Positions 30,501 to 56,776 of a DNA stretch of 64,000 nucleotides are shown here, one piece after another (the first letter of the stretch is position 1; the number at the start of each line of letters is the position of its first letter). The stretch is taken from IMG/VR virus record IMGVR_UViG_3300021400_000103; one strand, given 5' to 3'. The notes below the pieces were generated by a model, which was not told where the DNA came from, made no database searches, and was given only the letters and a program-made list of their open reading frames with translations. The position numbers and the translations under genes are program-made. Source of the stretch: a virus (taxonomy: Duplodnaviria > Caudoviricetes).

Positions 30501-30583
30501 TGCACCCGGCGGGACTCGAACCCGCACGGTCAAAGACCCCGGGATTTTAAGTCCCGTGCGGCTGCCAATTACGCCACAGGTGC
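30501..30583 (-). tRNA. tRNA-Leu(UAA)
   Basis: Cloverleaf; CGGGA-CTTAAAA-TCCCG; variable arm. Confidence 0.93.
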
Positions 30584-33423: not shown

Positions 33424-33640
33424 ATGATCTCCCATCAAACTATTCTTTTATTCTCTTTGCTCTGGTGGAATCAATGAAACCGCCTCATATTCCTTTTGAT
33501 GAATGCATTTTTTAGCATCGCAACACCATTCCCACCAAATATCTTCAACATAGCTTTTTTCACAACTAACACATGGTTCAACCACTAAATATTCATCATC
33601 TGTGAGTATGTTCATATCTAACTCCCATCAAACTTTGTTT

Positions 33641-33853
33641 TTATGCACTGTACTCCACAACTCTATCCATCCCTTTAAATTTAATTCTTATCTTTACGGG
33701 GACTCCATCAGGTATGCTCCCCTTAGATTTATACACTCCTACAATCTCAGCTGTTTCTAATGATTTATGATTTTTTTCGCATTCTTTAGCTTTTTCTTTA
33801 TCCGCATAATCGGTTTTACAAATATCACAAGTATATAATTTCTTTTCGGTCAT
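33641..33853 (-). CDS. Small C2H2-like protein, cassette gene
   Basis: YTCDIC...CEKNH; stop codon inside an 18-bp site. Confidence 0.6.
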   Translation of the reverse strand: MTEKKLYTCDICKTDYADKEKAKECEKNHKSLETAEIVGVYKSKGSIPDGVPVKIRIKFKGMDRVVEYSA

Positions 33854-33865
33854 AATATCCTCCTG

Positions 33866-34081
33866 TCAAATATCTTCTTTATAACATTTTTGTCTTTGTA
33901 TCCTAACCCATTTAACCGCATCCTTGCATTGATTACATACTTTTGAATCAATATGCAATCCTTTTTTATATCTCTCAAATTCATCATTAGAAAATAAAAC
34001 TGGTTCTCCACATATAATACAAGAAGTCCCTATTGTATCTCCATTATTGACCACTTTTTGATGCGACATTACATATTTCAT
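33866..34081 (-). CDS. Small Cys-rich protein, cassette gene
   Basis: CIICG...CNQC; bounded by sites. Confidence 0.6.
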   Translation of the reverse strand: MKYVMSHQKVVNNGDTIGTSCIICGEPVLFSNDEFERYKKGLHIDSKVCNQCKDAVKWVRIQRQKCYKEDI

Positions 34082-34210
34082 TAATAAACCTCCTATCAAA
34101 AGTAGTTTTTATTTAAAAGTCTAAAGCAACCCCTTAACCGTCTATTTTACCCTTAAAATCCTAAAATAGCCTTATTAAAACAAAAAATCTGTTTTAATGT
34201 CATTTTCTTC

Positions 34211-34786
34211 TTAATATCTTATTGTCGTCGGCATATGCGGTACTATGTATTTAAAGTTATCGACTTCTTCCTCAACCATCCGGTCATACGTCAATATAAC
34301 AGTATCTCCCCACCACACCTTCGGATCATAGAATTTAATTTGGCGACCATCTACTTCAAATGCCTTAATAATTTGGGTTTTACCATGTGAATTCTTTTTG
34401 GTGATAACAATATCTCCTACCGGTGTATGTTCCGTATACACCGTAAAATTAGTAGGCACACGATGTGTTTCAACTGTGTTCATTTTTACTTCTCGTTTAG
34501 GTTTTTCTAAATTACGGGTTCCAACCTCCCATTTATATCGACACGCCTGACATGCGAAACGAATATATGTCGTTTTTTGTATGGTTAATTCTTGCGATCT
34601 GCATGTATGCCACACGGGTTCTTGGTTTGTGCTTTCACTAATTGCAATACCAGGTGTTCCACATATTGGACACTCTGTTGCTGATTCCGTAACTTTCCAC
34701 CCTGGAATAGGAGGAATATATCGTTCAAAGTTTTCTTTTTGCTCTTCTGGAGTAGGACAAAATATCCTTCTAAAATCATTAGTCAT
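34211..34786 (-). CDS. Zinc-ribbon hypothetical protein
   Basis: CPICG...CQAC. Confidence 0.55.
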   Translation of the reverse strand: MTNDFRRIFCPTPEEQKENFERYIPPIPGWKVTESATECPICGTPGIAISESTNQEPVWHTCRSQELTIQKTTYIRFACQACRYKWEVGTRNLEKPKREVKMNTVETHRVPTNFTVYTEHTPVGDIVITKKNSHGKTQIIKAFEVDGRQIKFYDPKVWWGDTVILTYDRMVEEEVDNFKYIVPHMPTTIRY

Positions 34787-34813
34787 CTCATATTCTCCTA
34801 TCAAAAATTACTT

Positions 34814-35068
34814 TTATGCTTTTAAAATTATACAAGATATATCAGGATCATACTCACACGACACACCTTTATATTTTGCAACGATACCTTTAGACTTATC
34901 TATTGATTTTTCATTGATCCAATCATATGAAGTTGTAATTAACTCAATAAAATTTCTACCAATAATCATATGTGGTTCTACACCATACTCTGCCTCGAAA
35001 TCATAAATGGCTTTATTAACATCATATTCCCAAAATGAATTGTCTTTAATTTCTACTATTTGTGTCAT
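34814..35068 (-). CDS. Hypothetical protein
   Basis: Stop codon inside site 34800. Confidence 0.55.
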   Translation of the reverse strand: MTQIVEIKDNSFWEYDVNKAIYDFEAEYGVEPHMIIGRNFIELITTSYDWINEKSIDKSKGIVAKYKGVSCEYDPDISCIILKA

Positions 35069-35129
35069 ACAATTTTCTCCTTATAGTCAACGAAAGATCC
35101 AAACATACCTTATTATCTATTCCCTTACA

Positions 35130-35654: not shown

Positions 35655-35681
35655 ATTATTACACCTCGTACAATGTTTACT

Positions 35682-36080
35682 TTATTTTTCTGTTTCCTTT
35701 AATATCTTAAATAACTCCTGTGATATCTGATATTCCTTACTATACTCATTACCTCTGTATTTCAAACTATCAGCATAATCGTATATTTTTGATCGCAATG
35801 CCGGTTTTTCGGTCTGATGAAACATATACTCTTTCATCTTGTCTATGTAACCTTGGTTAATTTCTATAACCGCATCCTTATACATCTTGGATACTTTCTT
35901 TTCCGTGCTTTCCATAGCGTCTTTAATTATATCTGTCATGTCAGGCGGATACAGAAGATAGTTACTATATGATTCTAGGTCGCTTTCAGCCTGATCTAAA
36001 ATCAGCTTAACAAGACCTTTCTTTAAATCTTCTACATTTTCTTCTCCCAAGAGATATATTAATCCGTTTATTTTATCCAT
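35682..36080 (-). CDS. Hypothetical cassette gene
   Basis: Bounded by sites 35668 and 36095. Confidence 0.6.
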   Translation of the reverse strand: MDKINGLIYLLGEENVEDLKKGLVKLILDQAESDLESYSNYLLYPPDMTDIIKDAMESTEKKVSKMYKDAVIEINQGYIDKMKEYMFHQTEKPALRSKIYDYADSLKYRGNEYSKEYQISQELFKILKETEK

Positions 36081-36111
36081 TTATTTCTCCTCCAATCAAA
36101 AGTTTATTTTA

Positions 36112-36264
36112 TTATTCCATATACTCTTCTTCACTATATTCAGCCCAATCTCCTACATCAAAATATCCGCCAGTAACCCAATATACAAATCTTTCCATCC
36201 AATTGTAGAGTTCAACTCCATTATTAGAGTTTATTATTTCTATTAATTTTTCTAAATTCGTCAT
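36112..36264 (-). CDS. 50-aa protein, copy A
   Basis: MTNLEKLIEIINSNNGVELYNWMERFVYWVTGGYFDVGDWAEYSEEEYME. Confidence 0.7.
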   Translation of the reverse strand: MTNLEKLIEIINSNNGVELYNWMERFVYWVTGGYFDVGDWAEYSEEEYME

Positions 36265-36562
36265 GTTTATCCTCCTATTATAAAAATTTTATTTAAATAT
36301 GTTATATGTGACATATTTTTATCAAATATGTTTTATATAACATATTGCCAACGTCAGCAAAATGATATGATTTGCCGACATATCCTAGCCCACCAAGGAC
36401 AGTACCGGATTCAAACAGATCCACCATAAGTCTCAACAACACCGCCCCTGGCATGATGGATATGGCAGTATGATAAAAGTAGTTTGTCTGAAATGAACAA
36501 ACAAGTTTCATACACTTCATAAAGAATTAATCATAATGTTAATCTCCTATAAAAGTTCTATT

Positions 36563-36841
36563 TTATTTTTCATAATAATCACATGGATCATCACTAAACT
36601 TTCCAAGATGATGATACATATCTTTATGACTACAGAATAATCCCCAATCACTACCTCCAGAATAATATTTACAGTTATAACAAATATCGTATCCAGATAA
36701 GTCTTTATTGTGTAAAGTACAATTATGCTCTTTATCTGCTTTAACGACATAATGTGATAGTGTACAACAAGCCACATTAACTTGTTTACTTTTTATCTCA
36801 TAAGAAGACTGTTGACAATATTTACAAGTTTCACATTTCAT
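36563..36841 (-). CDS. Cys-rich hypothetical protein
   Basis: CETCKYC...CYNCKY. Confidence 0.55.
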   Translation of the reverse strand: MKCETCKYCQQSSYEIKSKQVNVACCTLSHYVVKADKEHNCTLHNKDLSGYDICYNCKYYSGGSDWGLFCSHKDMYHHLGKFSDDPCDYYEK

Positions 36842-37374
36842 ATTATCTATCCTCCTTAAATCGCACAAGCCATGTACCATAGTTTGGTTCATACTCAACC
36901 GACTCGCACTGTTTTATTAATTCAGATACTGTGTATGTATCACATAGTTTTACACGAAACCGAGACCCATAACACATACCAACGACAAGGAATACTACAC
37001 CAAATGGGAGCGCAGGAATCCCAATCGCGGACAATTCACTTTTAAATATGATAAGGATTATAAACAAAATAATCCCAATTATTAATAGAACCAATCCAAA
37101 TATCCACATCCAATCGTAGTTAATTTCTTTTATTATCTCCATCAGTATTTTTCCTCTCTTTCGCAATCAATCCATCATTATACCCACTCAAATAAGCCAA
37201 GTCATATAGCCGATTTGCGTATGTTTCCCAGTCATCTGTAGGTGGTTTTAATTCAGATGTCGCTTTCTGTTTTTCAAGTGTTTTGATAGCTAGATCTAGT
37301 AACATTTGAATTAGAATATTTATTGCATATTCTTCGTTTGACATTCGTCTGCCTCCCATCGAAAGTTTACTTTA

Positions 37375-37530
37375 TTATTCCACATACTCTTCTTCGCTAT
37401 ATTTTGCCCATTGTCCTGGGTCAAAATATCCGCCTGGATCAAACCAATACGCAAATTTTTCCATCCAATTGTAGAGTTCAACTCCATTATTGGACTTCAT
37501 TATTTCAATTAATTTTTCTAGATTTGTCAT
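37375..37530 (-). CDS. 51-aa protein, copy B
   Basis: MTNLEKLIEIMKSNNGVELYNWMEKFAYWFDPGGYFDPGQWAKYSEEEYVE. Confidence 0.7.
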   Translation of the reverse strand: MTNLEKLIEIMKSNNGVELYNWMEKFAYWFDPGGYFDPGQWAKYSEEEYVE

Positions 37531-37831
37531 GTGCTTATCCTCATAAAAACTCTATTTATCTTTATATACTTTGCCAAGATAATAACGCAAATATCATATT
37601 TGCTTTTTTTTATTGGTTTTCTGCCCCAGTCCATACCCAAGATTATGAAGTTGCTGTATAGCTACATCCCTCTCCCATTCAATCTGCTCGAAAGCACCTA
37701 TGTAGGTTTTTAAATCCTGCATATATTCCATAAGCTGAACTTTGGAATCAGACTTCGGATCTTCAATATAGAAGCGTATTCTTTCTAACCACTCATAAAC
37801 CTCTTTTGGACTATGCATATCTGGCCTCCAA

Positions 37832-38380
37832 TTAAAATTTCATTGTATAAACAATATTATGTCTGTTAATTAACTCGCTTATCTGATCCACCAAGGATTT
37901 ACATTCATCTTCAACGTATTCTTTAGAACGTACAGGATAATCATCTAGATATTCACTCTCAAATTTGATTCTTCTCTGTACATTCGGATCATCACCCCAA
38001 TATCTCGCCATTAATTCAAAATCTTTACCGTCCCCATAATGACCACAATCAAATCCTAGCCACCACAAATTACTTTCCACAGGATAAGTACCATTATTAT
38101 CATCCGAATAAGTTAATCCACCATGAACATTGAAATATGCATCCATTCTTATTCTGTCATCATCGTCAAATGCTGCGAAAAATATCGGCAGAATACCTCG
38201 ATTACCTATTTCTTCGCCATCTAATTCAGCCTTTGGGATATCTAAGTAATCTGTAAATCCCTTTTTATATAATGGATGCCCTGGTTTGATACCTACATAT
38301 CCGCAGCGATGTCCCATACCACCAAAGATAACTACACATCTGTAACCCTTATATGTAAAATCTGATTCTACCTTATACAT
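37832..38380 (-). CDS. Conserved phage protein (GHRCGYV...VHGGLTYS...WWLGFDCGH)
   Basis: Recognisable motif family; function unknown. Confidence 0.7.
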   Translation of the reverse strand: MYKVESDFTYKGYRCVVIFGGMGHRCGYVGIKPGHPLYKKGFTDYLDIPKAELDGEEIGNRGILPIFFAAFDDDDRIRMDAYFNVHGGLTYSDDNNGTYPVESNLWWLGFDCGHYGDGKDFELMARYWGDDPNVQRRIKFESEYLDDYPVRSKEYVEDECKSLVDQISELINRHNIVYTMKF

Positions 38381-38630
38381 TTAATCTCTTATATTACCTC
38401 CTTCTACCAAATCCTACTACAATATCCGAACCACAGATATCACAATGAATAAAACAATAGCCAGTTTCTTTTTCATACTCTGTTAATTCATTTCGATCAA
38501 TAACCAATCCATATCTTAAATCTTTTGGACACCGACAGATGGCGTATATGTATCTATCATATTTAAGTTGGCCTAATAATTGTGGTTTTGTATGATGATA
38601 TTTCATATTAATCTCCTATAAAACTCTGAT

Positions 38631-39320
38631 TTAACTGTTTGCAATAGATGCTATATTAGATTCAATTTTCTTATATGTGTCATTTGCCATAAGAATGTTT
38701 AGAACTGACTGACTTAACATATTTCTAGTGCTTTCATCAAACACAGTCTTAACATTTTTATTGATTTCTTGACGTATCTTATCAACTTCTTTATCTAAAT
38801 ATGCTTTTACCTCATTGTCTATCCCACAATTAGCTCTAATATATTCATCAAAAGAATATTCATCTGTTTTAATGTCATATTTATCTGAGTAACGATTCTT
38901 CGCTACGGACTTTACAACCTTAAATTTGCCATTATTTATAATATTTTTCATACATCTTTTTACATATTGGATAAATGTCAGTTCTTCTTTTGGCGTATCA
39001 TCCCAAATTAAATCTCCGCCAATAGTAATTTTTTCTGTATTCATATAATCTTCTATGATTTCCTTTATGATTTCCCCAGTCTGCAGCTGTATTTTTTCAT
39101 GAATATCCGCTAAACATTCTTCCTTTATTTGATTAATTACTTCTCGATATAAGTTTTCTTTAAGACTCCGAACAACGGCAGTAACAATACCATTAGCAAA
39201 ATTTTCAGTGTTGAAATTTATATTGATAATTCCATTACTATTTTCTGTACTTGTATTTTCCATACCGTCCATCTCCTCCATTTCCTCCTGAGTTGGTTCA
39301 TAATCTTCATCGTAATACAT
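38631..39320 (-). CDS. Hypothetical helical protein, cassette gene
   Basis: Bounded by sites 38618 and 39335. Confidence 0.6.
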   Translation of the reverse strand: MYYDEDYEPTQEEMEEMDGMENTSTENSNGIININFNTENFANGIVTAVVRSLKENLYREVINQIKEECLADIHEKIQLQTGEIIKEIIEDYMNTEKITIGGDLIWDDTPKEELTFIQYVKRCMKNIINNGKFKVVKSVAKNRYSDKYDIKTDEYSFDEYIRANCGIDNEVKAYLDKEVDKIRQEINKNVKTVFDESTRNMLSQSVLNILMANDTYKKIESNIASIANS

Positions 39321-39585
39321 ATGTATATCCTCCAATAAAAATTCAGTTTTATTGCCTTTCGAAGTTTTTAATTATATACGGTAGTCGCTTCATCCTTGTC
39401 CTTTTACACTTTCGGAGCTAATCCTGACCCACCGCTTAGATGATTAGTTTAAACCACACGAGGGTACTACCATGTGGTTACAGGGCACATATTCATTTAT
39501 ATACCGCAGCGAAACCTCTTCATCAGGAGGGATAATCCGCTAAGATTGGTACCACTGCCACCCCTGCGGTAATAGAAGACTCATT

Positions 39586-40674
39586 TTATTCATCAAATTT
39601 CATCAAGAACTTCGGACTAACAGCCTTAAATGATTGCTTACCATCTGCCGTTCTAAACACTATTCCTTCTCGTAAAGTGTCATATAACTTACTTGTTCCG
39701 GTTGCGTAATCAAGAACTTCATTCACCGTCATACCCTTAAGTTTTACCGCTGTATCAAGTATTGGAACAAATTTAAGCCCTTTACTTTCCATTAATTCCT
39801 TAGCTTCCACTGATCCAAGCCTACCCGACGGATAAATCACATTGAATACATATAACTCATATCCATCTATATGATATTTATTACCTTGAATCCCAGTACC
39901 GCAGCACTCACCCTGGATTGCAATCCATTCATTATCTCCAATCAATTCATTGAGTATCTGTTCTATATTATATTTCTCAGCTACCGACCAAAATGATGAA
40001 TTATCTTTTTTCCACTTCCTTAGATTACGACTACACACGGCGAAATCATAAGTTGTTTTATTCCACCAATGTTTTCCTTTTATTTTCTGTAATGTAAAGC
40101 TGCCGGACTGCCCATCGCATTTTTCTGTAGCTATCCATTCGATATCTAAATCAAGATAAAAAGGACAGTTTTGGATACGAGTTTCATCCGTTTTAGAAAT
40201 AAATGATGGGAAACCTCGTGCCTGTTTCTTTGGTAATACAAGATCTCTAAACCACTTAAATTTCATTAAGAATTTTGGATATCTCTTCTTAGGTTGATAG
40301 TCTTTTTCTTCAACCTCCTCTTTATCCATTGTTGGTTCGTACTGCGTAATCCCCATTACTTCTGTTACATCCTGCCCAATTTCGTAATCTCCTTCAGGAA
40401 GAAAAGAAAGAGGAAAGCATATACCTTGGGACACAACTCCCGACATCTTCATCGTCTTAATCCTAAACTTCTTACTTCTAAGAAATTCATACTCTGGCTT
40501 TTCAGGAAATACAGAATCAATTTCGCAAAATACTACCTTGTCTCCTACGTTAAAATCCGATTTCTGTACTATAACTTGCCAACCCAAAACTCCGGCTAAT
40601 ACAATTCGATCTTTACCTTCTATCGGAGTCATCCATTCTATTTTCTCTATATGCGCTAACGCTCTATCACTCAT
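39586..40674 (-). CDS. RNA ligase (DRB0094/Rnl2-like family)
   Basis: EIDS; KTDETRIQN; TEKCDGQS; QGE; REGIVF; SFKAVS. Confidence 0.88.
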   Translation of the reverse strand: MSDRALAHIEKIEWMTPIEGKDRIVLAGVLGWQVIVQKSDFNVGDKVVFCEIDSVFPEKPEYEFLRSKKFRIKTMKMSGVVSQGICFPLSFLPEGDYEIGQDVTEVMGITQYEPTMDKEEVEEKDYQPKKRYPKFLMKFKWFRDLVLPKKQARGFPSFISKTDETRIQNCPFYLDLDIEWIATEKCDGQSGSFTLQKIKGKHWWNKTTYDFAVCSRNLRKWKKDNSSFWSVAEKYNIEQILNELIGDNEWIAIQGECCGTGIQGNKYHIDGYELYVFNVIYPSGRLGSVEAKELMESKGLKFVPILDTAVKLKGMTVNEVLDYATGTSKLYDTLREGIVFRTADGKQSFKAVSPKFLMKFDE

Positions 40675-40985
40675 TTAGTTTTCTCCCCTTTAATTTCAAT
40701 GTATTTCTGAACATTATCAACAACATTGATCACAGCTATACCAATCGCCAATGCAGCGAGAATTGTTTTCACAAAATCATTTATAACTTTCTTCATAAAT
40801 CCAAGCTCCTTTCCGTCCACATCTCGCACATATCGTCAGGTTCAACCTCTACTACGAAAGTGCTAAAATCATCAACATCCTCACCACACCGAGTTAGACC
40901 AATACAACATGCCGTTTCCGTAAATCCCTTACCCTGGATAAACGTATGCTTAAGTTTATGATAGAATTTACAATTACCACATTTT

Positions 40986-41591
40986 TTATCCATTCAGTTC
41001 ACCGTCCTCAGTCTCCGGCACATGGTCGGTGGATTCACGATTAAGGATCTTGAAAGCTGGGCGAACCCCACCAGAGGTGGAAGCGTTGCTGTAGCTCGCA
41101 TTCCCGTTGCCGTTCACAAAAGCGAAGTAGGCAGGAAGCGCAACCGAACGCAACCACATATACTCATATGAACAACCTCGTCTTTCCGCAATACGATGTC
41201 TACGATTCTTAAAATATGGTATCTGACCATCGCAAGCGTCAAAGCCTTCATTTAATCCGCAGACCTCCTGTAATGACAGGAGCCATAGATAGTCTCCATG
41301 ATACCCCTCACAGAGCTGGACTCCGTACTTCTTCTTCATTTTCTTTGCGAACCTGTTTCCAAGTCCATGCAGATACTCCCTCATTTCTGACTTATCATAT
41401 CCGCCATCAGTTGTGTCAGTAGCATTCATTCGCCTTGCATCGTCCAGGAACTGATCAAAAACGAAAAGCATCTCGTCACCCTGCTGCTGAATTGCCGTAG
41501 CGGAGTATTTACTCCCATCAAATTTGAATTTTATCCGGTCGCCAATCTGAAAGTGATTGGTCTCGATTTTTATCTTACGATATACCTTCAT
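40986..41591 (-). CDS. DUF6273-like C-type-lectin-fold protein with a DGR variable-region-like C-terminus
   Basis: SEMREYL; LWLLS; WLRS...FAFVNGNGNASYSNASTSGGVRPAF. Confidence 0.7.
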   Translation of the reverse strand: MKVYRKIKIETNHFQIGDRIKFKFDGSKYSATAIQQQGDEMLFVFDQFLDDARRMNATDTTDGGYDKSEMREYLHGLGNRFAKKMKKKYGVQLCEGYHGDYLWLLSLQEVCGLNEGFDACDGQIPYFKNRRHRIAERRGCSYEYMWLRSVALPAYFAFVNGNGNASYSNASTSGGVRPAFKILNRESTDHVPETEDGELNG

Positions 41592-41662
41592 TTTTCCTCC
41601 TTATCTGCTTCTATTATTGTTTCTGCATCATATATTGTCTGGAATTTTAACAACTATCTCCA

Positions 41663-46397: not shown

Positions 46398-48332
46398 TTT
46401 TATACCTCCTTATAAAACCGAGTTTTTATTGGGTTCTTCTAGAAGAAAATCATTGAAATTCACATCAGTTTCTTTGGAAATGCTTTCAATGTATTGATCC
46501 ACTCCTTCAGATTCTTCCTGTGTAGCATCTCGCATTTCTTCCAGATCAATAATCGGTTTGTGTTTCTTTATTCTCGTGATATGTAATGTGACTTTCTTTT
46601 TCATTTTATATCTCCAACAATAATGGTTTTATTTGGTTATGATTTTTAGATGTCGTTATCAGATTCATGATACCAATCGCAAAAACCATCTTTTATACTT
46701 TTATGTTCTTTGATACAATAATTGTATAGAACGATAATGAACCATGTTGTCCATATAATTGTTGGAATAATAATATAAATCATTGTTCTGTGCTCCTTAA
46801 CGCTTTTATGGTATTATGTTATTTACTGATTTAAAATGTCCTTTTAAGTTACTTAGCAATTATTGACCATTGCGTCTCTAACAGGCGTTTCTCGCGGTTC
46901 AAAGCAGTTATGGACTTCTCTTGCGTCTACTTCGCAATTCCATTTTCGACAACGATCATAATACCATTCGTAATGCTTGCAATCATCGCAATTCATAAGT
47001 GTCCTTTCTGTAAATGTCAGCATTTGATAACGCTTTTATAGTGTTAAATATTTAGTATTCTACACCAAGTTTTTCCGCAAGCTCATATAATTCGTTTGAT
47101 GAAAAATCCTCAATATATCCATACACATTACTATTATTTTCTAACGCATTTAATAGATTCCTGAAATTTTGAAACATAATAGACAATACAACCTTTTCCT
47201 GGGGTGTATATTCGATGCTCATCTGTCTATACCTCCTCAACGCTTTTATGAGGTTATTAAACTAACTATTTTCGGTTTGAAGATCCTTTATGCCAGATAT
47301 GATTTTATTCATGCAATTATCACATATATCCATTTTGTGATATGTCATATCGACAAAAAACAACCTTTTTTTTATCTTATAACCAATATGTCTACGGCAT
47401 TCAATATAATCTCCGCAAATATCACAAATTTTTGTTTTAATTTTCATATTCACCTCCGATTTCATACTGTCCCTGACAAATTGATCTTAATCTCTTCGTT
47501 AAGTCATCATCTATTTCGTCAAATAGTTTATTCATTTGATCAAAATTTATACTTCCTTTAAGAAATTGCAGTAATACATTATTTATTTGTCTACATGCTT
47601 TATCACATTCTTCTTCAACTCTTTTACATAACCATTGTTCATGTGTCATTTTTTTCATATAGTATCACCTAGTTTCTATTTTCAACATACTTCTATAAGC
47701 ATCTGATACATAGTTATACACAATCTATATTCCTACATCGTCTATTACCTTCTGTATCTTAGCCGTATTTATTCGCCGGATATATTCTTCACTCGGTTCA
47801 TAACCGTTGCATTGTCCGTACTTATCACAAGCAGCCTCAGACGGAATATCAAAATGAATATGATTATCCCAATCAACGAAGTGATGACCGCAATCTCCTT
47901 TGAAATGAGCGCAGTTTTTACATTCTAAGTCCATAACCCCTCCTATTATCTTCTCTCATGCCTAAAAAACTTAACCCCACACCCAGGGCAGAAATTAGAA
48001 TTATTTGTGGAACGATTTGCCTTAAATTAGCATCCGCAGAGTTTACACCTATAATATCTGTTATAAGAACCTTCGATATATTCGCAGATAGCTTCTGGAT
48101 TATGCTTAGTAATATCCGGTCGCTCAGGTTCTATAAACTCCATAAAATGATCCAGATAATCTCCTGCATACTCAATATGTTCCCGACAAAAATATGCGGG
48201 ATATCCATTCTTATGAGCGACAATATGCGGATCATATTTGTCAATCTGCTTAAAGCATACATTACACCGCCTTAGTGTATTGGCTAATAATTCATCGAAT
48301 TTATCCATATTTTCTTCCCCTTAAATTCTGAT

Positions 48333-49310
48333 TCAGTTCCTCTTCTCTCCTTTATCCTTCAATGCTATTAACGCGTTACCACAAGTTATTCGATCCGAGT
48401 CCTCTTCTTCACTAGGCACAAATACAATTACATCCCACCCAGCTTCAACTAAAGGACGTTCGAATTTTTCATAAATATTGAAATCCTTCACAATCTCATA
48501 GTGATTATTGACTGCCTCTACTGTTTCATGAATAGGAGTAATCTTCACAATGCATTTAGATGGATCAAAAAAACGATTCATCATGTCCGGATCAAGAACA
48601 GATTCGGATGTTACGGCAAAATTAAGTGTAAACTTTCTTTTTAATGGATTTGGAAGTTCTTTAATAATGTTGCTAATTTCCTGCAATGACAATGACCTAT
48701 TTCTAAACATGGTATTTCTATCCGATTCAACAAGCGTATTAATTGAAAACTGTAACCCAAATCCATCTTCACTACCGTAGTGGTATCCAGTCACAATCCA
48801 TGATTGAAGAAATTGCTTAAGGTTAGTGTATCCCTTAGGCATCATCGTTGATACCACGGGGTGATATTCCTTAAACATTTCATGCCCTGGTCTGCGAACA
48901 ATGTTTGCTATATCTACTGCGGCATCAATTACTCCGAAGTTAAAGGTTGGTTCGCCCATTCTAGCAAAATGGACATTGAGTCTCTGACCTTCCTGTATCC
49001 CAGACAAAGCAATACCTGACATTATTTCATGGACTAATTCCGTCCTTGATACATTCCCATAGAATCCATACTTAGGACAATCACAGAAATCACAATCCAT
49101 GCAACATCCTTTTTGTGACGATACTGTTACAACCAACTTATCGGCTAGATTTACAGGTTTATGATCCACTTTATCAATCCGTTTGGTATAACCAAGAAAA
49201 TCTGCTTTGATATTGTTTTCTTTTCCGTAATCACCTACGTACAAATATTCAAGTTTCAGATCAGTATCCGAGACTATTTTGCCAGTATGTGTTTCTGTAA
49301 TTGTCCTCAT
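48333..49310 (-). CDS. RlmN/Cfr-like radical SAM enzyme
   Basis: VSSQKGCCMDCDFC; ARMGEP; LQFSINT; C-terminal ITCG. Confidence 0.8.
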   Translation of the reverse strand: MRTITETHTGKIVSDTDLKLEYLYVGDYGKENNIKADFLGYTKRIDKVDHKPVNLADKLVVTVSSQKGCCMDCDFCDCPKYGFYGNVSRTELVHEIMSGIALSGIQEGQRLNVHFARMGEPTFNFGVIDAAVDIANIVRRPGHEMFKEYHPVVSTMMPKGYTNLKQFLQSWIVTGYHYGSEDGFGLQFSINTLVESDRNTMFRNRSLSLQEISNIIKELPNPLKRKFTLNFAVTSESVLDPDMMNRFFDPSKCIVKITPIHETVEAVNNHYEIVKDFNIYEKFERPLVEAGWDVIVFVPSEEEDSDRITCGNALIALKDKGEKRN

Positions 49311-49324
49311 ATTTTTACCTCCTA

Positions 49325-49723
49325 TTACTCGTCATCATCCTCGGCATCTGCCGTAGTCAGCATAGCCTGAAGTTCCTCAACGGACTTCTCCTTAAGAGCC
49401 GCATCCTGCTTATCAGCCATAATTTCGAGAATACGCTGATTCTGCATTCTCTGTGCCGCAGCCTTCTTAGCACGATCACTTGCAGCGAGTTTATCAGCAA
49501 CTATAATCTTGATAATTTCAATCTTGTTATTGAGTTCCTTATCCTCTTTGGATACAGCCTGTAACAAAGACTCCTCAGATGCATTTCTCTGCTGAGATTT
49601 CAGCGACTTAAAAATCTTATCCAAATCCTCTACGCTCAAATCCCACAGATCCTCTACGGAAATAAGACCTCTGTAGTTAAAACGATACTTCTTCTTCACC
49701 GCTACCTTAAACAAATCTGCCAT
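49325..49723 (-). CDS. Conserved large-phage coiled-coil protein
   Basis: KYRF...GLISVEDLWDL. Confidence 0.65.
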   Translation of the reverse strand: MADLFKVAVKKKYRFNYRGLISVEDLWDLSVEDLDKIFKSLKSQQRNASEESLLQAVSKEDKELNNKIEIIKIIVADKLAASDRAKKAAAQRMQNQRILEIMADKQDAALKEKSVEELQAMLTTADAEDDDE

Positions 49724-49743
49724 TTTAGTTTCCTCCTTTGATA

Positions 49744-51810
49744 TTAAAATTTTATTTTAAGGATGCGCTCTGTAGCACCCTTAACTTTTACTACAAGTTC
49801 GTTCCGTACTGTTGAACTAAATCCAATGCCGGACAACTGATCACTAGTTTCTAATACATGTGCTTTCATTGACAACGCTTCCAATACTTTACGATGTGCG
49901 GGATAGAGTTCGTTATTTAAGAACTCCGAATACCAAGCATTAGGCAACTCCGGATTTACGCAATCCTTCAACATAAAGAAGTAATGCTTATTACCAATTC
50001 CGTTCTGTTCATCCCAATAGTTAGGTGAATAACATACAACTGTTACAGGAGTAAATGTGTTGGTGTGTACACCCCATACTTCTTTTGACGCACAGTTGGA
50101 AGGAAGTGATTCTTTTATAAGGAACTGCCCGTTCTTAAGTGTCACCTCTGCCACTTCTACCTTTTCACCAGTACGCATACCATGCGGATAATCAAAGGAA
50201 TAGATGTTACCATCAAACTCAATCTCAGCTCTAAACCCTTTCTTTACGCTACCAGAAAACTGATGAACAAAGAATTTATATGAACCATCCCGCATAGTCT
50301 TTCTGTTAGCCCAAGTAATGTTTTCAACGGCAACATCTTTTCCAGGATGAATGATATCTACATCTAACTGACCCTTTGTGGGTGAATAAGCGGGTTTTCT
50401 ACCATTACAATAATAGATTTCAAAACCGCTGGGTTCTATACAGTGTGCATCAAGATCACAGTCGTCTACACCTTCTTCGTTCCACTGAATAGAAAACCGG
50501 AGATCCCCATCCACTTTACCGCCCGCAGACTTTACTCTTTCCTTCATGGAGTCCGTCAGATTACCGGCATATGCCCAAGAGAAATTATTATTCCACTTAA
50601 ACATAGTTTTGGAATCCTTGTGAACCGGAGCAATCAGCGACATAAAATTAGGGATATGCTTGCTTTCCACATATGCTTCAATTTCAGAAACAGTAGGCAG
50701 AACATCTGCAATAAATTTGTCAATACTGATTTCCTCAACTCTATCGAACTTTTTAGGATTAGGCTTTGTCTCTTTTTCAAGTTCATCGAATAATGATGCA
50801 GCACCAGCCATGCGCTTTGCGGTATCACGATTACTGAACAATATATTATTGACAGTAATATCATCAACATTTGCATATCTTCGTTGCAACGAATCCAGAT
50901 AACCAAGTTCTGTAATGGTTTTCTGTGCATCCTCAAGCATCTTTTTTGTAAAGATAGGCTTTGAACGCTTATAATTAGTCGGAGCGGTAACTGACTCATA
51001 TCTCTTTACCGCTTCTTCCAAATCCATATCCTCAGATACATCAATAAGGAGAGTTCCAATCGCAGTATTGCGGATCTTGGCTACCGATTCGGGAAGTGTA
51101 AATGCCGTTTCCCACGCATATTTATCTCTATCCTCTTCCACCAAAGTATCGTAGAACTTCTTATGCGTTCTGAACTGCTGGATCATACTCTTGTATTCAT
51201 CTCCCTTGTATAAACTGCCTTGATTAATGAGATCAAGTACAGTATCTACGGCTTCCAGTTTCAGTTCATCGAGCGAACGCTTATATACATGCTGAATATC
51301 TCGGTAGTGGCTACGCTGCGTATCAATTGTATCGATGCTATAATTATTTCGTTTAGTCCATACAAACTTTGATGGTACGATATAATAGAAATGATCCCAT
51401 GTAATACTATTGCAATCTTCATCCAACATAAAATTGCGTTCTGTACCGTAATGAGCATCCTTAGTGATAAAAACATCCCTAATAGGACAGCTCTTTACAT
51501 AGTCAGACATAGCCTTGAGTACAGCGTTCCATTTTGGATCAGAAGTTTCACAATCCCATACTGTAGTAATATTTCCGTTTTTCAGTTCTACTACATTACC
51601 GATCCCCTTAATAAAATGCCGACAACAAGAACAGTCATACTCTCGTCTTGTTCGGTATATCGGGTTATCTGCTGCCGGAATTGTATCGAGATACACCTCC
51701 CAAAGTTTGTCCTTGTCAAGATCAACCTCAAACAGTTTGTTGTTCTCGTCACACATCCTTGCCAGCTGTGTCCTTACTGCATCTCTGATTGTTGTAAATG
51801 TTAAGCTCAT
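49744..51810 (-). CDS. Conserved large-phage protein (YfaP-like DLDAH domain)
   Basis: YDCSCCRHFI; LRFSIQWN...DLDAHCIEP...LDVD...VENITW. Confidence 0.7.
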   Translation of the reverse strand: MSLTFTTIRDAVRTQLARMCDENNKLFEVDLDKDKLWEVYLDTIPAADNPIYRTRREYDCSCCRHFIKGIGNVVELKNGNITTVWDCETSDPKWNAVLKAMSDYVKSCPIRDVFITKDAHYGTERNFMLDEDCNSITWDHFYYIVPSKFVWTKRNNYSIDTIDTQRSHYRDIQHVYKRSLDELKLEAVDTVLDLINQGSLYKGDEYKSMIQQFRTHKKFYDTLVEEDRDKYAWETAFTLPESVAKIRNTAIGTLLIDVSEDMDLEEAVKRYESVTAPTNYKRSKPIFTKKMLEDAQKTITELGYLDSLQRRYANVDDITVNNILFSNRDTAKRMAGAASLFDELEKETKPNPKKFDRVEEISIDKFIADVLPTVSEIEAYVESKHIPNFMSLIAPVHKDSKTMFKWNNNFSWAYAGNLTDSMKERVKSAGGKVDGDLRFSIQWNEEGVDDCDLDAHCIEPSGFEIYYCNGRKPAYSPTKGQLDVDIIHPGKDVAVENITWANRKTMRDGSYKFFVHQFSGSVKKGFRAEIEFDGNIYSFDYPHGMRTGEKVEVAEVTLKNGQFLIKESLPSNCASKEVWGVHTNTFTPVTVVCYSPNYWDEQNGIGNKHYFFMLKDCVNPELPNAWYSEFLNNELYPAHRKVLEALSMKAHVLETSDQLSGIGFSSTVRNELVVKVKGATERILKIKF

Positions 51811-51847
51811 TTTTAATTCCCTCCTTTTGCCTTTTGCATTATATTTA

Positions 51848-52267
51848 TTACCATTTTTTATAAAAACCTTCATCAAAAGTATCGTCATTGACAAGACCGA
51901 AGTTATATAATTTATCAACGGCTTTAATCAGTTCGTCTCCGTACCAACCATAATCAGTATTTTCCAAACCATTTTCCAAAACGATACACCAAGATTGGAG
52001 TACACAATTCATCAGTCCAGCAGATATACCACGATGATTCGTAGCCTTTTCTATTGCAAATTCTGTATCATCTTTTAGTTGCTTAAGAATGTTATCTTCT
52101 GTCCAATCCAATACATTTCGAGTTCCATCTCCGGTATATTTAAACCCATACTTTTCCCATTCATCAGCTGGAATAAAATCAAGAAATCTTTTAGTCCAAC
52201 GATGATCTAACATTTTATCCTGCTCTACCTCATCATAATGTTCTTTAACCCATTCTAATGTTTTCAT
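51848..52267 (-). CDS. Hypothetical protein
   Basis: RBS AAGGAGG; HRGISA motif. Confidence 0.6.
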   Translation of the reverse strand: MKTLEWVKEHYDEVEQDKMLDHRWTKRFLDFIPADEWEKYGFKYTGDGTRNVLDWTEDNILKQLKDDTEFAIEKATNHRGISAGLMNCVLQSWCIVLENGLENTDYGWYGDELIKAVDKLYNFGLVNDDTFDEGFYKKW

Positions 52268-52282
52268 AAAATTTGCCTCCTT

Positions 52283-52990
52283 TTATTTGGGATTACCCCT
52301 AAATGACAACTTCGTATCGAATCCGTGCATTTCGATCTTGTCATTATTCGTTGCACCGATAGGATCAATGCGCTCGGATTCTGTTTTGAGAAGAGAAAAA
52401 TGTTCTTCTATTGCCATAAATATATCTTCCGGTGAGATTAAATCTTTGATCCCACAAGCTGTCAGAATTGGTGGGTTGTTCTTGCCAAACATGATTTCCC
52501 TACGAACATCATCATTGTTATTTATAGCATCTTGTAGAACATTTATATTTGATATTACAAGTTCTCGGAAAGTCTTTTTCCTCCGGCTAATATATGGTTC
52601 AATTCGAGCAAATATCTTAAATCCAAAATTGATATACTCCAACCGAACAGTGGTTCTTGGTCGATCATAATTCTTCCAAGTAGATATTACCTCTAATGAA
52701 TATTCTGCAATATATTCACGCCAATCATACTTTCCTATCTTCCCGGAATACACACCGGAAACAGTTACTAACAGTAACCAATAGGTAGCACCACATTGTA
52801 GTAATATAAATCCTTCCTTTGGTAATTTTTGACTACTACGGCGTATATCCATATGGTTGCATAATGAAGCACCAAATCTACCTTTGGTTACAATATATGA
52901 TCCTCTTCGGTCAAATACTATGGCGTCATCGGAATTTTGCAGGTAATCGTAATAGTCCGTGTTCTTGTCAATAATCCTAATAATAATCAC
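52283..52990 (-). CDS. Conserved phage hypothetical protein
   Basis: IIDKNTDYYDY...HGFDTKLSFR. Confidence 0.6.
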   Translation of the reverse strand: MIIIRIIDKNTDYYDYLQNSDDAIVFDRRGSYIVTKGRFGASLCNHMDIRRSSQKLPKEGFILLQCGATYWLLLVTVSGVYSGKIGKYDWREYIAEYSLEVISTWKNYDRPRTTVRLEYINFGFKIFARIEPYISRRKKTFRELVISNINVLQDAINNNDDVRREIMFGKNNPPILTACGIKDLISPEDIFMAIEEHFSLLKTESERIDPIGATNNDKIEMHGFDTKLSFRGNPK

Positions 52991-53006
52991 CCCCTCCCAG
53001 TTATCA

Positions 53007-53411
53007 CTATTCGTCTAGTTGTTTCTTCGTCAGAGGCTCTTCTACCGAATCCCGTTTGGAGTCATATTCGAACCAAGTACCAATTTCACACTTGTCAAAA
53101 GTATCTTTGTCTGTATAGAATCGATTCGTTTCATATCTGCTATCTGATTCATTATATTTCCGAATACGAATAATATACTCATCCGGATGGTGATGCCAAA
53201 TAGGAACCATTTGCGTCCAAGAGTATTTACCGTTGTAATGCACTATCGGCATCATCTGTACCCAAGATTTTTCAGGAACAAACTCTTTATCATATACTTC
53301 TCCATCAGTTATTCCCTTACTACACCCAGACAGTAATATGATACATAATGAAATTATGCTAACAACAAGTCTTTGTTTCATTCTCTCGCCGAGATCATCG
53401 TGTGTTGGCAT
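53007..53411 (-). CDS. Lipoprotein (LSGC lipobox; second ATG at 53381)
   Basis: MKQRLVVSIISLCIILLSGC. Confidence 0.65.
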   Translation of the reverse strand: MPTHDDLGERMKQRLVVSIISLCIILLSGCSKGITDGEVYDKEFVPEKSWVQMMPIVHYNGKYSWTQMVPIWHHHPDEYIIRIRKYNESDSRYETNRFYTDKDTFDKCEIGTWFEYDSKRDSVEEPLTKKQLDE

Positions 53412-53464
53412 ATATTACCTCCTCATATTTACCCAATCAAACTTTGATTTTATTGACTAACTTC

Positions 53465-54094
53465 TCACTTATACAACTGATACTTCCTGCTGATCTCATG
53501 CGCCACCTCGTCCGGCAGAGGCCTGAAGCCTATACAAGTGAGGGTTCTGCCAATGCCATCTGCTCCGACTTCCTCCGGTTCAAGTTCAGTAAGGCAGTTA
53601 TCTTTGATTAGAAAGAAGTCCTTTCCTTCTTCTAATCCCAACTCTTTTGCCTTATCTACAGCTTTCAGCAGATGATTTTTGTTTTTCGCTTCGCATACTG
53701 TTTTGGTAAAGATACCATTAATCCAATCATCGTATATATCTTCGTCAATTCTTACTATTGATTTATAATGATGTTTTATATCTTCTTTATTTACTAATTC
53801 TGGTTTAGGAAAACCATTATTATCGTGCCCCTCAAAAATGTAAAAAAATCTTTCTCCATTATCTGCCGCTTCTTTACACCATTTATATAAATCTGGATGT
53901 CTGTATGGAACTATTCTTTGATCGACTCGTGTGGGTTCATATACACGCATCTTCTTTATTCCATAATCCATTACTCTGCTTGAATTAGATTTAATTAGAT
54001 ACATAAACCATGCATTAGATCCGTGAGCCGCCATGGCACATGCTTTCCCCGAACTCATGTGCAAATCTTTCCGTATAATTATCAATTGTCTCAT
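53465..54094 (-). CDS. Peptidyl-tRNA hydrolase, Pth2 family
   Basis: QLIIIRKDLHMSSGKACAMAAHGS; KTVC; IKDNCLTE; TCIGFRP. Confidence 0.85.
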   Translation of the reverse strand: MRQLIIIRKDLHMSSGKACAMAAHGSNAWFMYLIKSNSSRVMDYGIKKMRVYEPTRVDQRIVPYRHPDLYKWCKEAADNGERFFYIFEGHDNNGFPKPELVNKEDIKHHYKSIVRIDEDIYDDWINGIFTKTVCEAKNKNHLLKAVDKAKELGLEEGKDFFLIKDNCLTELEPEEVGADGIGRTLTCIGFRPLPDEVAHEISRKYQLYK

Positions 54095-54186
54095 TCTGTT
54101 GTCTCCGTTTCCTCTAAAATCTTAAGTAACTCTGTTCCAATCTTGTATTCGGTGCTAAATTCATTCCCATAAAATTTAAGTTTTAT
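54091..54186 (-). pseudogene. 3' remnant of a paralog of 35682..36080, truncated at the 18-bp site
   Basis: LKFYGNEFSTEYKIGTELLKILEETE vs LKYRGNEYSKEYQISQELFKILKETE (17/26 identical); no in-frame start codon. Confidence 0.7.
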
Positions 54187-54207
54187 TTACATCGTTTCCT
54201 TTATTTA

Positions 54208-55209
54208 TCATGTAAACTTTGGTGTCTCTAAAAATCCAATACATTTTAATGACTCTGAATTTTCATACCTCACAGCCCGATCACTGTAAAATATTAGGTC
54301 TCCGTTTTCCTTTATATAGTCATAATATTTCTTATACATATGACTATGTCTGTAATACTGTTCGTTCCTTACAGCCTCTTCCACCTTATCAAAGTCCAGC
54401 TTATCAACAAACTTATAGTGCCGGATTGCAAACCATATAGGGCATTCCATTTTAGGCGTAAGGTAGTGCGCATTTGCGTAAAAATCATTTCCCTCATAGT
54501 AGAATAACGGATACTTTGACAGACCAACAACAAACTGGAATACACGCCCTCTGACACCGCCTTCAATTAGCGTTCCGTGTTTCCATTGTTTTTTACATAT
54601 ACTCCCTGGTTCGAAATAAACGCATTCTGAAAACCAATTTTCATCACAACAAAACATCGATCCTTTAGGAAACATATCAATCATAAATCCTTGATACCGT
54701 TTAGTTTCGGTCATTTGAAGCAACTCTGTAATTGGATGGTTTTCACATCCAATATACGTTAGGTATTCATCTGCATCTACTACAACACACCAGCGATTAA
54801 TTCCATGCTGCACTAACGCATAATTCAGCCATGCGACTCTTCTCTCGGAGGAATATGTGTCATCTGATCCATATAATATGACGCCATTTTCCTTTGAAAG
54901 CCAATCTCTCGTTCCATCTGTAGATCCATTATCTACAAATACAAACCGGTCAATGCCAAGATCTCTGTAATATCTGATGAATTGTGGTATCCTGAATCGT
55001 TCATTACGTACTACACAAAACAAGACAGGATTGTTTCCATTATCAGTCCAGTTGTTAACAATCTGATAAATATTAATATGTTGCAACTCGTTTAAGATTT
55101 GTTTTCGCCTTGTATCATTGGACTGTATATATGTTTCTAGCTTAGGTTGTATAACGTCCGGACTACAGTTCAGTTTATGACTGATCTTGTCTATAACAGC
55201 GTCGTCCAT
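54208..55209 (-). CDS. Glycosyltransferase family 2-like
   Basis: VRNE...YYRDLGIDRFVFVDNGSTDGT...WCVVVDADEYL. Confidence 0.88.
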   Translation of the reverse strand: MDDAVIDKISHKLNCSPDVIQPKLETYIQSNDTRRKQILNELQHINIYQIVNNWTDNGNNPVLFCVVRNERFRIPQFIRYYRDLGIDRFVFVDNGSTDGTRDWLSKENGVILYGSDDTYSSERRVAWLNYALVQHGINRWCVVVDADEYLTYIGCENHPITELLQMTETKRYQGFMIDMFPKGSMFCCDENWFSECVYFEPGSICKKQWKHGTLIEGGVRGRVFQFVVGLSKYPLFYYEGNDFYANAHYLTPKMECPIWFAIRHYKFVDKLDFDKVEEAVRNEQYYRHSHMYKKYYDYIKENGDLIFYSDRAVRYENSESLKCIGFLETPKFT

Positions 55210-55493
55210 TTACTTTCCTTCCTTTTCTTTGCAATCATCAGGCTCATCTAACCTCATTTCGCATCCAGTAACAAACCACTCCCTTCGAGTCGTTCCGTAG
55301 TATGTCTCGTAGTCCCATAAAGCATATTTACAATTTGTGCAATCGGTATTTTCCGTTACTTCTTTGCAGAATTCAGACATATTTTCCTCCATTAATAGCC
55401 TTTGTGGTTAGTTTCTTGCACTCCAGTCTTAAGATTATCCGGATGAGCTAGGCATCCGGAGTTGGTTTTTTCACACATTTTTTGCTTACTACA

Positions 55494-55537
55494 ACATTAT
55501 CACATACTATTGGCAATGTCAAGTATTAGTTTATGGC
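55494..55537 (-). promoter_or_regulatory. Promoter with conserved upstream box GCCATAAACTAA, upstream of the accessory array
   Basis: TTGACA-17-TAATGT; shared box. Confidence 0.7.
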
Positions 55538-55756
55538 ATTGTGGTGGAAAAATATGGCTCATTTCCAATGCGTTGTCGTGATTATGTTTCCCTCTTTGCT
55601 GTTGTTTTTATGTTTTAGAAATGTTTTTGCCATATTTTGACAACATACAAACGACTCTGCATCTGTCATATGATGAAACTCCGGATCCCATGTAGCAATT
55701 TTTTCTAATATTAATACAGCTTGATCATATTTATTCATTTTTTTTGCTCCCCACAC

Positions 55757-56776
55757 CTACATTACCATGGACGTAATCATATTTGTTGCTTCTTCTCTTT
55801 CCTTGTTGTTTGTTACAATATACCTTTGTGTTGTGGATATGTTACTATGCCCTATTACTCTCCTGACATATTCAACGTCGTTTTTCTGTTCATATAGAAT
55901 AGATGCCAAACCACTTCTAAATTTATGAGGACTCATCTCGTAGCCAAGAGCTGCTTTTGTATATTTTTTTACCATTTTTACAATGCCATTAACGCTAATA
56001 CGCTCGTTGGATTTCGATATGAACAATGCAGAACTTTTTGGATCTGTTAAAATTTCATTTCTAGTATATATCCATAATTCTAAAATATCGACTAGTTTGT
56101 CATCGAGATAGTACATATGTCTTTTTTTTCCTTTGTCAATGACCATAATAGTTCTATTTATAAAATCAATATCTTCCACATTTATACTTCTCAAAGCACT
56201 TTCTCTCATTCCAGTAGCCATCAATAACATGAGCATCGCTCGATCTCTGTTAATATACTTGTTTCTATTATACTTAACCTCATATGTTATTTCTAAAATG
56301 TTTTTAAAATCATCTGCAGTCGTATGTAACCTGTTACTTTTAATTCTATCAAGATCATTATTTTTGGGTCTGTCAATCCCAGCATCCACCAAGTAATTTG
56401 TTTCAATCTTACCTTTTTTACATAAATAAGTAAAATAATTATTTAAACAACTCCAAACACATTGCCTATATGAATCCGACGTTTCACACTCAACTATTTC
56501 TCCTACTCCACCTTTAAATCTTGTTTGAATACTGACAAAGTACTTAATTATTATCTTATCTGTTATGGTTTCTACATCCACATCAAACAATCCGGTTTCC
56601 TTTTTTACCCAATTAAAAAAATGATCAATCTTCCTGACGTAGTCACGACATGTCATTGCTGATTGACCATTGGCCTTAAGATAATAATACCATTCAATTA
56701 CACTATCTGGCATATTATCTATTTTCTGTTCGATTTGTTTAAAAATCCTTAGTTCATTTTCAAGCCTTCCATTCAT
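55757..56776 (-). CDS. Second tyrosine recombinase (XerC/D-like, catalytically intact)
   Basis: TGMRES, DKGKK, HKFRS, IGHSN, TQRY; no arm-binding N-domain. Confidence 0.9.
   Translation of the reverse strand: MNGRLENELRIFKQIEQKIDNMPDSVIEWYYYLKANGQSAMTCRDYVRKIDHFFNWVKKETGLFDVDVETITDKIIIKYFVSIQTRFKGGVGEIVECETSDSYRQCVWSCLNNYFTYLCKKGKIETNYLVDAGIDRPKNNDLDRIKSNRLHTTADDFKNILEITYEVKYNRNKYINRDRAMLMLLMATGMRESALRSINVEDIDFINRTIMVIDKGKKRHMYYLDDKLVDILELWIYTRNEILTDPKSSALFISKSNERISVNGIVKMVKKYTKAALGYEMSPHKFRSGLASILYEQKNDVEYVRRVIGHSNISTTQRYIVTNNKEREEATNMITSMVM

Follow-up and report, generated by a model that had tools for sequence, protein, structure and literature searches.

A palindrome family of SPbeta-like phages as candidate crossover joints for gene exchange

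Several described systems resemble in part the arrangement analyzed here, a family of 18-bp palindromic sites at gene boundaries in a 64,000-nucleotide stretch of viral DNA (Duplodnaviria; Caudoviricetes; IMG/VR record IMGVR_UViG_3300021400_000103; the whole stretch is hereafter called the window). In laboratory cassette exchange with Cre or Flp, heterospecific lox or FRT sites consist of inverted arms around a 6–8-bp centre, and recombination is confined to sites with identical centres. A segment lying between two different centres is thereby swapped between molecules with its order unchanged, which makes this system the closest working analogy; the phage arrangement differs in being natural, in having 13–26 different centres per genome and exact arms of just 6–11 bp, and in that its enzyme is a candidate. 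In Acinetobacter plasmids, many short Xer-type pdif sites, used by the host XerC/XerD, flank small gene modules (dif modules) that pass from one replicon to another. The pdif arms are asymmetric, with a XerC and a XerD side, and are similar to the host dif, whereas the phage arms are symmetric, their centres are site-specific and in fixed order, and the candidate enzyme is phage-encoded rather than host XerC/XerD. The promoter-early stem-loop (PeSL) cassettes of T4-type phages likewise have a short conserved motif, linked to modular shuffling, that borders the small accessory genes of a hyperplastic region; a PeSL is an early sigma-70-type promoter plus a stem-loop, and the exchange proceeds by homologous recombination, whereas the sites described here lack promoter geometry and differ in their centres.

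The initial annotation of the window, made from its letters alone, proposed an integron-like cassette system. The likeness lies in the pairing of a tyrosine recombinase with rows of small genes that share one orientation and have recombination sites between them. Integron attC sites, however, are imperfect palindromes of 57–141 nucleotides (nt) which form single-strand hairpins and close each cassette at its 3′ end, whereas the phage sites are duplex-type palindromes of 18–28 bp, with 6-bp AT arms in the window. The phage has no attI/Pc platform and no attC hairpins, and its recombinase does not head a single array and lies 23 kb from its usual partners; palindromes occur on both sides of the recombinase across the genome and also in the late regions of relatives. 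The integron-like label is accordingly dropped, while the underlying idea that the sites are recombination junctions finds support in model relatives, with matching footprints in the window. A further repeated element of the same phage group, SPBRE, is AT-rich and intergenic and is bound by MrpR, the integrase-fold repressor of SPbeta (PMC10516654); it differs in being an asymmetric double A-tract of 15–26 bp that is read by a monomer, is phage-specific and occupies other positions.

We propose that the 18-bp sites are the window's copies of a palindrome family of SPbeta-like phages and serve as addressed crossover joints for gene exchange, a reading to which we assign a probability of about one half. 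A recombination role for the palindromes is likely, and the idea of a joint, taken by itself, we grade higher than the full reading.

The palindrome in the window and in related phages

Across the window, the pattern ATMAAA-N6-TTTKAT has 13 exact matches, all on the plus strand in the form that corresponds to the coding orientation of the minus-strand genes, compared with 0.16 expected and a maximum of 2 in dinucleotide shuffles of the window. A search for degenerate sites, which allowed up to two arm mismatches and required a Shine-Dalgarno sequence (SD) and a start codon, returned 15 sites on the coding strand, none on the opposite strand and 0–3 (about 1) in shuffles. Adding the sites at 53436, 54169, 41517, 24442 and 28200 and a degenerate copy at 45836–45853 brings the total to about 20, of which 12 cluster in 33.4–39.4 kb. 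When aligned on the coding strand, the sites give the consensus ATAAAA-N6-TTT(G/T)AT-N-GGAG, followed after about 8 nt by ATG, with 1.7–1.9 bits of information in the arms and the GG and about 0 bits in the 6-bp spacer. The distance from palindrome to GGAG is fixed at 1 nt, and the upstream TAA is supplied or abutted by the left arm at 33434, 33627, 34800, 36095 and 36549. Exact sites 24442 and 41517 lie inside called open reading frames (ORFs).

These results bear out several observations of the initial annotation. The motif is indeed present at about 20 gene boundaries (as 13 exact and further degenerate copies), the six coordinates given as examples are all correct, the arms are conserved around a variable 6-bp spacer, and the site often supplies the upstream stop codon with GGAG close behind. 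The enrichment over shuffled background that had been proposed as a check is present, the motif is scarce among core replication genes (only a few sites fall in the replication module), and the 6-6-6 layout in the window agrees with the geometry of tyrosine-recombinase core sites, in which inverted arms flank a 6–8-bp centre.

The motif is not peculiar to this one phage: the palindrome family, with core TAAAA-N6-TTTTA, is common to SPbeta-like large phages of Firmicutes. Multiple copies are present in the IMG/VR phages G001–G005, in phi3T, the Geobacillus phage E3, the Clostridium botulinum phage c-st and SPbeta, and in Perkons, a Staphylococcus SPbeta-like phage (StaphSPb), the Mammaliicoccus phage phi116 and the Bacillus cereus phage pW2. 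G002–G005 were leads from a motif scan of the whole collection, in which the matches listed were mostly single chance matches. In an unbiased ranking, for which all 6-N(4–8)-6 inverted repeats were counted per genome and compared with Markov simulations, ATAAAA with a 6-nt spacer (ATAAAA/6) ranks first in nine genomes of the SPbeta supergroup, SPbeta and phi3T included. Its copy numbers are 6, 11, 14, 13, 17, 13, 19, 26 and 10, whereas no simulated mean exceeds 1.15. Reversed-pattern controls in the relatives give 0–2 matches compared with 10–26 for the palindrome. The Clostridioides phage pCD1602_4 carries a variant, TTAAAA/6, in 8 copies.

Per genome, 10–17 of 13–18 sites are intergenic. The palindrome extends to as much as 28 bp in relatives, with arms of 9–11 bp in pW2 and phi3T, and its symmetric flank differs by lineage, being G..C in pW2 and phi116 and A..T elsewhere. 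In the window, G001, E3, pW2 and phi116, an SD follows the sites after 1–10 nt; this adjacency is absent in SPbeta, in StaphSPb and in c-st, where 0 of 10 intergenic sites lie within 30 nt of a start, and it is therefore not a defining property of the palindrome. The SPbeta record labels one copy simply 'stem_loop', and no description of the palindrome was found in the literature searched.

Breakpoints, laboratory junctions and footprints

Among SPbeta, phi3Ts and BUCT083, sites with the same centre are collinear: phi3Ts shares eight of them with SPbeta and 11 with BUCT083, and BUCT083 shares seven with SPbeta. At the sites with centres GATCAA, TATTCC, GAATAC, TCGGTC and GAGGGA, exact identity stops 0–4 nt from the site on one or both sides. 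The left flank of the GATCAA site is unrelated and its right flank is identical over 1386 bases; the GAATAC site has 4873 identical bases to its left and four to its right; at TATTCC and TCGGTC, both flanks are unrelated in some phage pairs. These flank identities are ungapped, and an indel beside a site could mimic a homology break. In an identity-jump test of phi3Ts versus SPbeta, based on 300 nt to either side of each site, identity changed by more than 0.3 at 8 of 14 palindromes compared with 25% of 72 control gene starts (Mann-Whitney p = 0.0105). In the comparison of BUCT083 with phi3Ts, eight of the 56 ends of homology blocks have a palindrome centre no more than 30 nt away, where 0.46 would be expected.

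Two published junctions from an evolution experiment with phi3Ts and SPbeta lie on same-centre palindromes, although they were not recognized as such in the published table. For extrachromosomal phage DNA, Supplementary Table 1 of that study gives 16 homologous junctions and a single non-homologous one (bioRxiv 10.1101/2020.05.06.055103). We calibrated its chromosome coordinates to the SPbeta record by x = 2286447 − c, which fits exactly for junctions 3 and 4. On this scale N1, the sole non-homologous junction, maps to base 116414, at which the TATTCC palindrome of SPbeta begins. Junction 7, for which the table gives a homology of 30 bp, corresponds to a variant palindrome, ATAAAATGCATATTTTAA, that both phages carry between unrelated flanks. 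Since palindrome sites occupy an estimated 1% or so of the genome and both of the two minimal-homology junctions fall on them, a coincidence is unlikely. In the three sequenced phi3Ts-SPbeta hybrids, Hyb1–3, three crossover intervals each have a palindrome at their boundary; these hybrids were not taken to prove that joints are where crossover happens, the intervals being long identical stretches.

Several stretches of the window resemble products of recombination at the sites. The gene at 45849–46397 has a perfect palindrome with centre ACTCGG upstream of it, at 46412–46429, and at its downstream flank a degenerate copy (left arm GATAGA, centre ACTCGG, right arm TTTTAT) at 45836–45853, both on the minus strand, as are all sites listed here for the window. 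The gene is thereby flanked by a 21-nt direct repeat made up of the centre, the right arm and the SD, the left arm having decayed in the downstream copy, and such a repeat would be the expected product if a circular site-plus-gene unit had inserted at a resident site. A small gene and its downstream site with centre TAAACT are present twice, in units 36089–36266 and 37352–37532, which are 86–89% identical; an exact site (36095–36112) forms the 3′ end of the former and a degenerate one, ATAAAG-TAAACT-TTCGAT (37358–37375), ends the latter, and the duplication stops directly after the SD of the site. The same centre is found between unrelated flanks in the IMG/VR phage G003, a single match that may be due to chance. 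The exact site at 54169–54186 is followed, in place of an SD, by a start-less remnant, 54091–54168, which begins in the site and resembles the C-terminus of the paralogous protein encoded at 35682–36080. The exact site at 41517–41534 lies inside the 5′ end of ORF 40986–41591, whose product starts at position 58 of a 241-position PHROG profile, and the 5′ end of this ORF may have been replaced at the site.

In the mechanism that we propose, the 6-bp centre carried by each palindrome copy would be its address. When two related phages share a cell, crossover would occur between copies with the same centre, and crossover at two joints would swap the genes between them while keeping gene order. Because each site has its own centre, ordered exchange between genomes is predicted, rather than the shuffling within one array that the initial annotation put forward. 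The cut could be made by the XerC-like protein of YopP/SroD type encoded at 55757–56776, or by a YomM-like recombinase encoded outside the window, and the tight packing of stop codon, site and GGAG in the window would reflect compact intergenic space rather than a translation signal. The behavior of a recombination joint is supported in close model relatives by the site-edge breakpoints and the two laboratory junctions; that the sites in the window behave likewise, and that a phage tyrosine recombinase makes the cut, we infer. We put forward only tentatively the more specific possibility that SPbeta-like phages across Firmicutes practice a natural form of heterospecific-site cassette exchange, in which a conserved phage tyrosine recombinase, of YopP/SroD type or YomM-like, would join only palindromes with identical centres. 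Dozens of unique joints per genome would in that case let co-resident phages trade accessory genes position by position with their order unscrambled.

A number of observations weigh against a role of the palindromes as addressed joints. The crossover intervals of Hyb1–3 comprise 1.4–18 kb of perfect identity, within which the crossover is not placeable at the palindrome, and a fourth hybrid junction has no palindrome. On its phi3Ts side, N1 is 14 nt off the TATTCC copy. Mosaic boundaries lie mostly away from palindromes, and in an earlier, cruder test the share of palindromes with a block end no more than 60 nt away (4 of 14) did not differ significantly from that of other gaps (20 of 130; p = 0.18). 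The expectation that breakpoints in relatives would fall at the sites is supported by the homology that ends 0–4 nt from site edges in SPbeta, phi3Ts and BUCT083, and not by this cruder test. Right arms of the G variant are invariably oriented toward the SD, a bias that a symmetric crossover site does not predict. The Brevibacillus phage Sundance has YopQ/R-like genes and tyrosine recombinases and no palindromes at all. Finally, no close relative of the window was found, and hence no breakpoint could be mapped on its own sites.

Candidate enzymes and alternative explanations

The candidate enzyme in the window is a XerC-like tyrosine recombinase of 339 amino acids (aa) encoded on the minus strand at 55757–56776, the positional equivalent of YopP/SroD. 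As the initial annotation had stated, the gene is intact: alignment to 4a8e and XerD reveals the complete catalytic set of R, K, HxxR, H and Y in the motifs TGMR, KGKK, HKFR, GHS and RY. Its Pfam match (PF00589, 6.7e-33) is a generic one to the Phage_integrase family. The protein is 39% identical to its counterpart in G001, compared with 26% for the DNA polymerase. In G001, phi3T, SPbeta, E3, Perkons, phi116 and the Staphylococcus phage, the XerC-like gene lies directly upstream of yopQ-yopR. In the window it lies 23 kb upstream of the YopQ/YopR-like genes (30699–32743), with the site-rich accessory region between them, whereas in relatives these genes form one operon. The yopP-Q-R module of SPbeta is probably active in the lysogen (PMC10516654). 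It was in lysogens, too, that the laboratory junctions formed. Another catalytically intact tyrosine recombinase, which is YomM-like, is conserved in the late gene cluster of the palindrome-bearing phages examined (SPbeta 40301–41302; G001 13902–14909); it is 54–68% identical among Bacillus, Geobacillus and staphylococcal phages. The XerC-like protein may act on the sites as a candidate, and the YomM-like recombinase and annealing-type recombinases, for example YorG on islands of 18–30 bp, are equally possible actors.

The palindrome might instead, in line with the alternative named in the initial annotation, be mainly a dock for a dimeric regulator or another phage protein, exchange being a by-product of short-homology annealing or RecA recombination on an 18–30 bp island. 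We regard this as somewhat unlikely, although sequence-conserved arms around a free spacer are typical of a dimer operator, most sites are intergenic, those of the window, G001, E3, pW2 and phi116 stand close upstream of an SD (1–10 nt), the TTTGAT arm is always turned toward the gene, and the symmetric flank varies by lineage. SPbeta also encodes a Sak4-like annealing protein, YorG, and a parallel by-product has been proposed for PeSL cassettes. A dock of this kind is difficult to reconcile with identical centres standing beside unrelated flanks, since a free spacer should drift, or with the placement of sites that include 116414 in SPbeta, which follows yorZ and precedes a terminator and a convergent gene, and the 10 intergenic sites of c-st, none within 30 nt of a start. 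The sites also have no consistent -35/-10 geometry around them, and no shared regulator gene tracks the motif; indeed, no gene of any kind, shared regulators included, tracks it phyletically among the phages compared. An element at the RNA level, either a short AU hairpin or a protein-binding motif close 5′ of the SD that tunes translation or mRNA processing, would account for the fixed 1-nt gap to GGAG in the window, the location of all copies on the coding strand and the stem_loop annotation in SPbeta. This explanation is very improbable: the common T-to-G change creates an A.G mismatch rather than a wobble pair, the arms keep their sequence instead of covarying, a 6-bp AU stem is very weak, SD adjacency is missing in c-st, SPbeta and StaphSPb, and some copies stand beside terminators or between convergent genes. 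That pure A/T arms in an accessory region of 33–36% GC arose as a chance product of AT-rich intergenic sequence has a negligible probability, being refuted by the shuffles (13 versus 0.16), the reversed controls (0–2 versus 10–26) and the Markov simulations (at most 1.15).

Another explanation centres on the window's own MrpR/YopR/SroF-family protein, an integrase-fold repressor homologue encoded on the minus strand at 30699–31622, whose operators the sites would be, equivalent to SPBRE and silencing accessory genes in the prophage. The protein matches Pfam PF22822 (MrpR_N_CB; E = 8e-13, 49.3 bits against a cut-off of 27), the yopR homologue of phi3T was found by tblastn, and both marks of the MrpR/SroF family are present, an N-terminal core-binding domain and an adjoining YopQ/SroE-like gene. 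The latter (31619–32743, minus strand) encodes a DndB/ParB-fold protein with a YopQ match of 5e-17. In favor of such operators, this repressor homologue is encoded beside the YopQ-like gene in a window without an SPBRE-type direct A-tract repeat, an ATAAAA tract is common to SPBRE and palindrome, three phi3T loci where the two abut were counted, and MrpR ChAP-seq peaks include yorE, yorM and yorZ, which are near palindromes. We nevertheless consider the explanation improbable. SroF of phi3T binds as a monomer to its box, an asymmetric double A-tract of 26 bp (bioRxiv 10.1101/2025.11.27.690993), and the 17 SPBRE cores and 14 palindromes of phi3T are mostly at different places. The palindrome is invariant even though MrpR-like proteins are only 22–29% identical and SPBREs differ between SPbeta and phi3T; pCD1602_4, which by BLAST lacks the YopQ/R-like pair apart from a weak partial YopR-like match, has the variant palindrome, and Sundance has the pair and no palindrome. 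An identity of SPBRE with the palindrome had been our first reading, and it was rejected on the SroF-DNA structure and the phi3T mapping. An SPBRE-type box (GAATAAAAATAAAAT), an element of lytic promoters, is not enriched in the window, with 3 one-mismatch matches versus 3.0 expected. At phi3T loci L140, L141, L143 and L145, SPBRE directly abuts a palindrome, 18–22 nt from start to start, and repressor and palindrome-binding factor may interact at such loci.

Other candidates were rejected as well. A YonO promoter was ruled out, as YonO uses a single late promoter. Sigma-A promoters, an extended -10, an UP element and complementarity to the anti-SD give no consistent geometry in the aligned sites, in which no -35/-10 recurs at a constant spacing and the sequence upstream carries about 0 bits. 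A phyletic link between the motif and YopQ/YopR, perfect with six genomes, was broken by Sundance, pW2 and pCD1602_4. The 237-aa protein encoded at 60414–61127 was dismissed as the binder because it is absent from phi3T, E3 and c-st. This protein has a weak GP88 Pfam match and is 68% identical to its G001 counterpart, which far exceeds the 22–40% of most other shared genes.

Individual sites, neighboring genes and significance

The remaining sites lie mostly between 33 and 40 kb. The exact site ATAAAA-GAATAG-TTTGAT at 33434–33451 holds the TAA of 33448–33615 in its left arm and has GGGAG after 0–1 nt, and the exact site at 33627–33644 (centre ACAAAG) lies between the stop codon of 33641–33853 and the SD of 33448–33615. 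Four degenerate sites are each followed by an SD: ATAAAG-AAGATA-TTTGAC at 33865–33882 by AGGAGG, TTTAAA-TAAAAT-TTTTAT at 36280–36297, ATACAA-TGAAAT-TTTAAT at 37831–37848 by TGGAGG, and GTTAAA-TCAGAG-TTTTAT at 38618–38635 by AGGAG. Interspersed with these are the exact sites at 34095–34112 (centre ACTACT) and 34800–34817 (GTAATT; the upstream TAA falls within its left arm) and the perfect palindromes at 36549–36566 (TAGAAC) and 39335–39352 (CTGAAT). At the exact site at 53436–53453 (TCAAAG) the SD is further downstream. Of the two other exact sites, the one at 24442–24459 (TTGACA) is in the replication module, inside a called ORF, and the one at 28200–28217 is atypical in that its centre, GGAGAA, is itself the SD of gene 27782–28201.

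The window comes from a large temperate phage that is SPbeta-like and has a putative gut-Clostridia host. Past about 4.6 kb, the minus strand carries nearly all genes. A tyrosine integrase is encoded at 2942–4171, further products are a primase, a DnaB helicase, a DnaE-type polymerase and an NrdD ribonucleotide reductase, and five tRNA genes (Pro, Lys, Met, Ser and Leu) lie on the minus strand at 27340–27726 and 30500–30583. Megablast found no near-identical phage among GenBank phages, and the viral and metagenome contigs scanned with the MrpR-like and XerC-like proteins yielded only distant loci; an exact-protein search led back to this DNA itself, at 100% identity. The nearest complete relative is the 131.8-kb IMG/VR contig G001, and most genes share just 22–40% protein identity with it.

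Parts of the accessory region (39586–40674 and 48333–55209) appear to form an RNA-repair and modification cluster, whose members are an RNA ligase with a PHA02142 OB domain, a PTH2 peptidyl-tRNA hydrolase, a glycosyltransferase, a protein with a weak radical-SAM match and a 724-aa DUF8224/phrog_1735 protein common to Ackermannviridae and phiCbK. The motif is absent from relatives of the RNA ligase in the genomes scanned. At 42956–43315, within ORF 42637–43446, three direct repeats of about 33 nt are spaced by 162–165 nt, which suggests that the encoded protein is internally repetitive. A RadC-like JAB gene, a GmrSD N-terminal-domain gene and a DUF932 gene (56773–57273, 58876–59859 and 62953–63885) lie upstream of the XerC-like gene and may be defence or counter-defence cargo.

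If the proposed reading is correct, it would explain how accessory genes are replaced at fixed gene order in very large temperate phages of Bacillus, Staphylococcus, Clostridium and gut Clostridia, and the genes so exchanged would include counter-defence, RNA-repair and modification genes. The reading can be tested directly in B. subtilis. It would also give a function to the orphan recombinase gene in the SPbeta lysogeny module, and the palindromes would constitute a set of natural orthogonal recombination sites.

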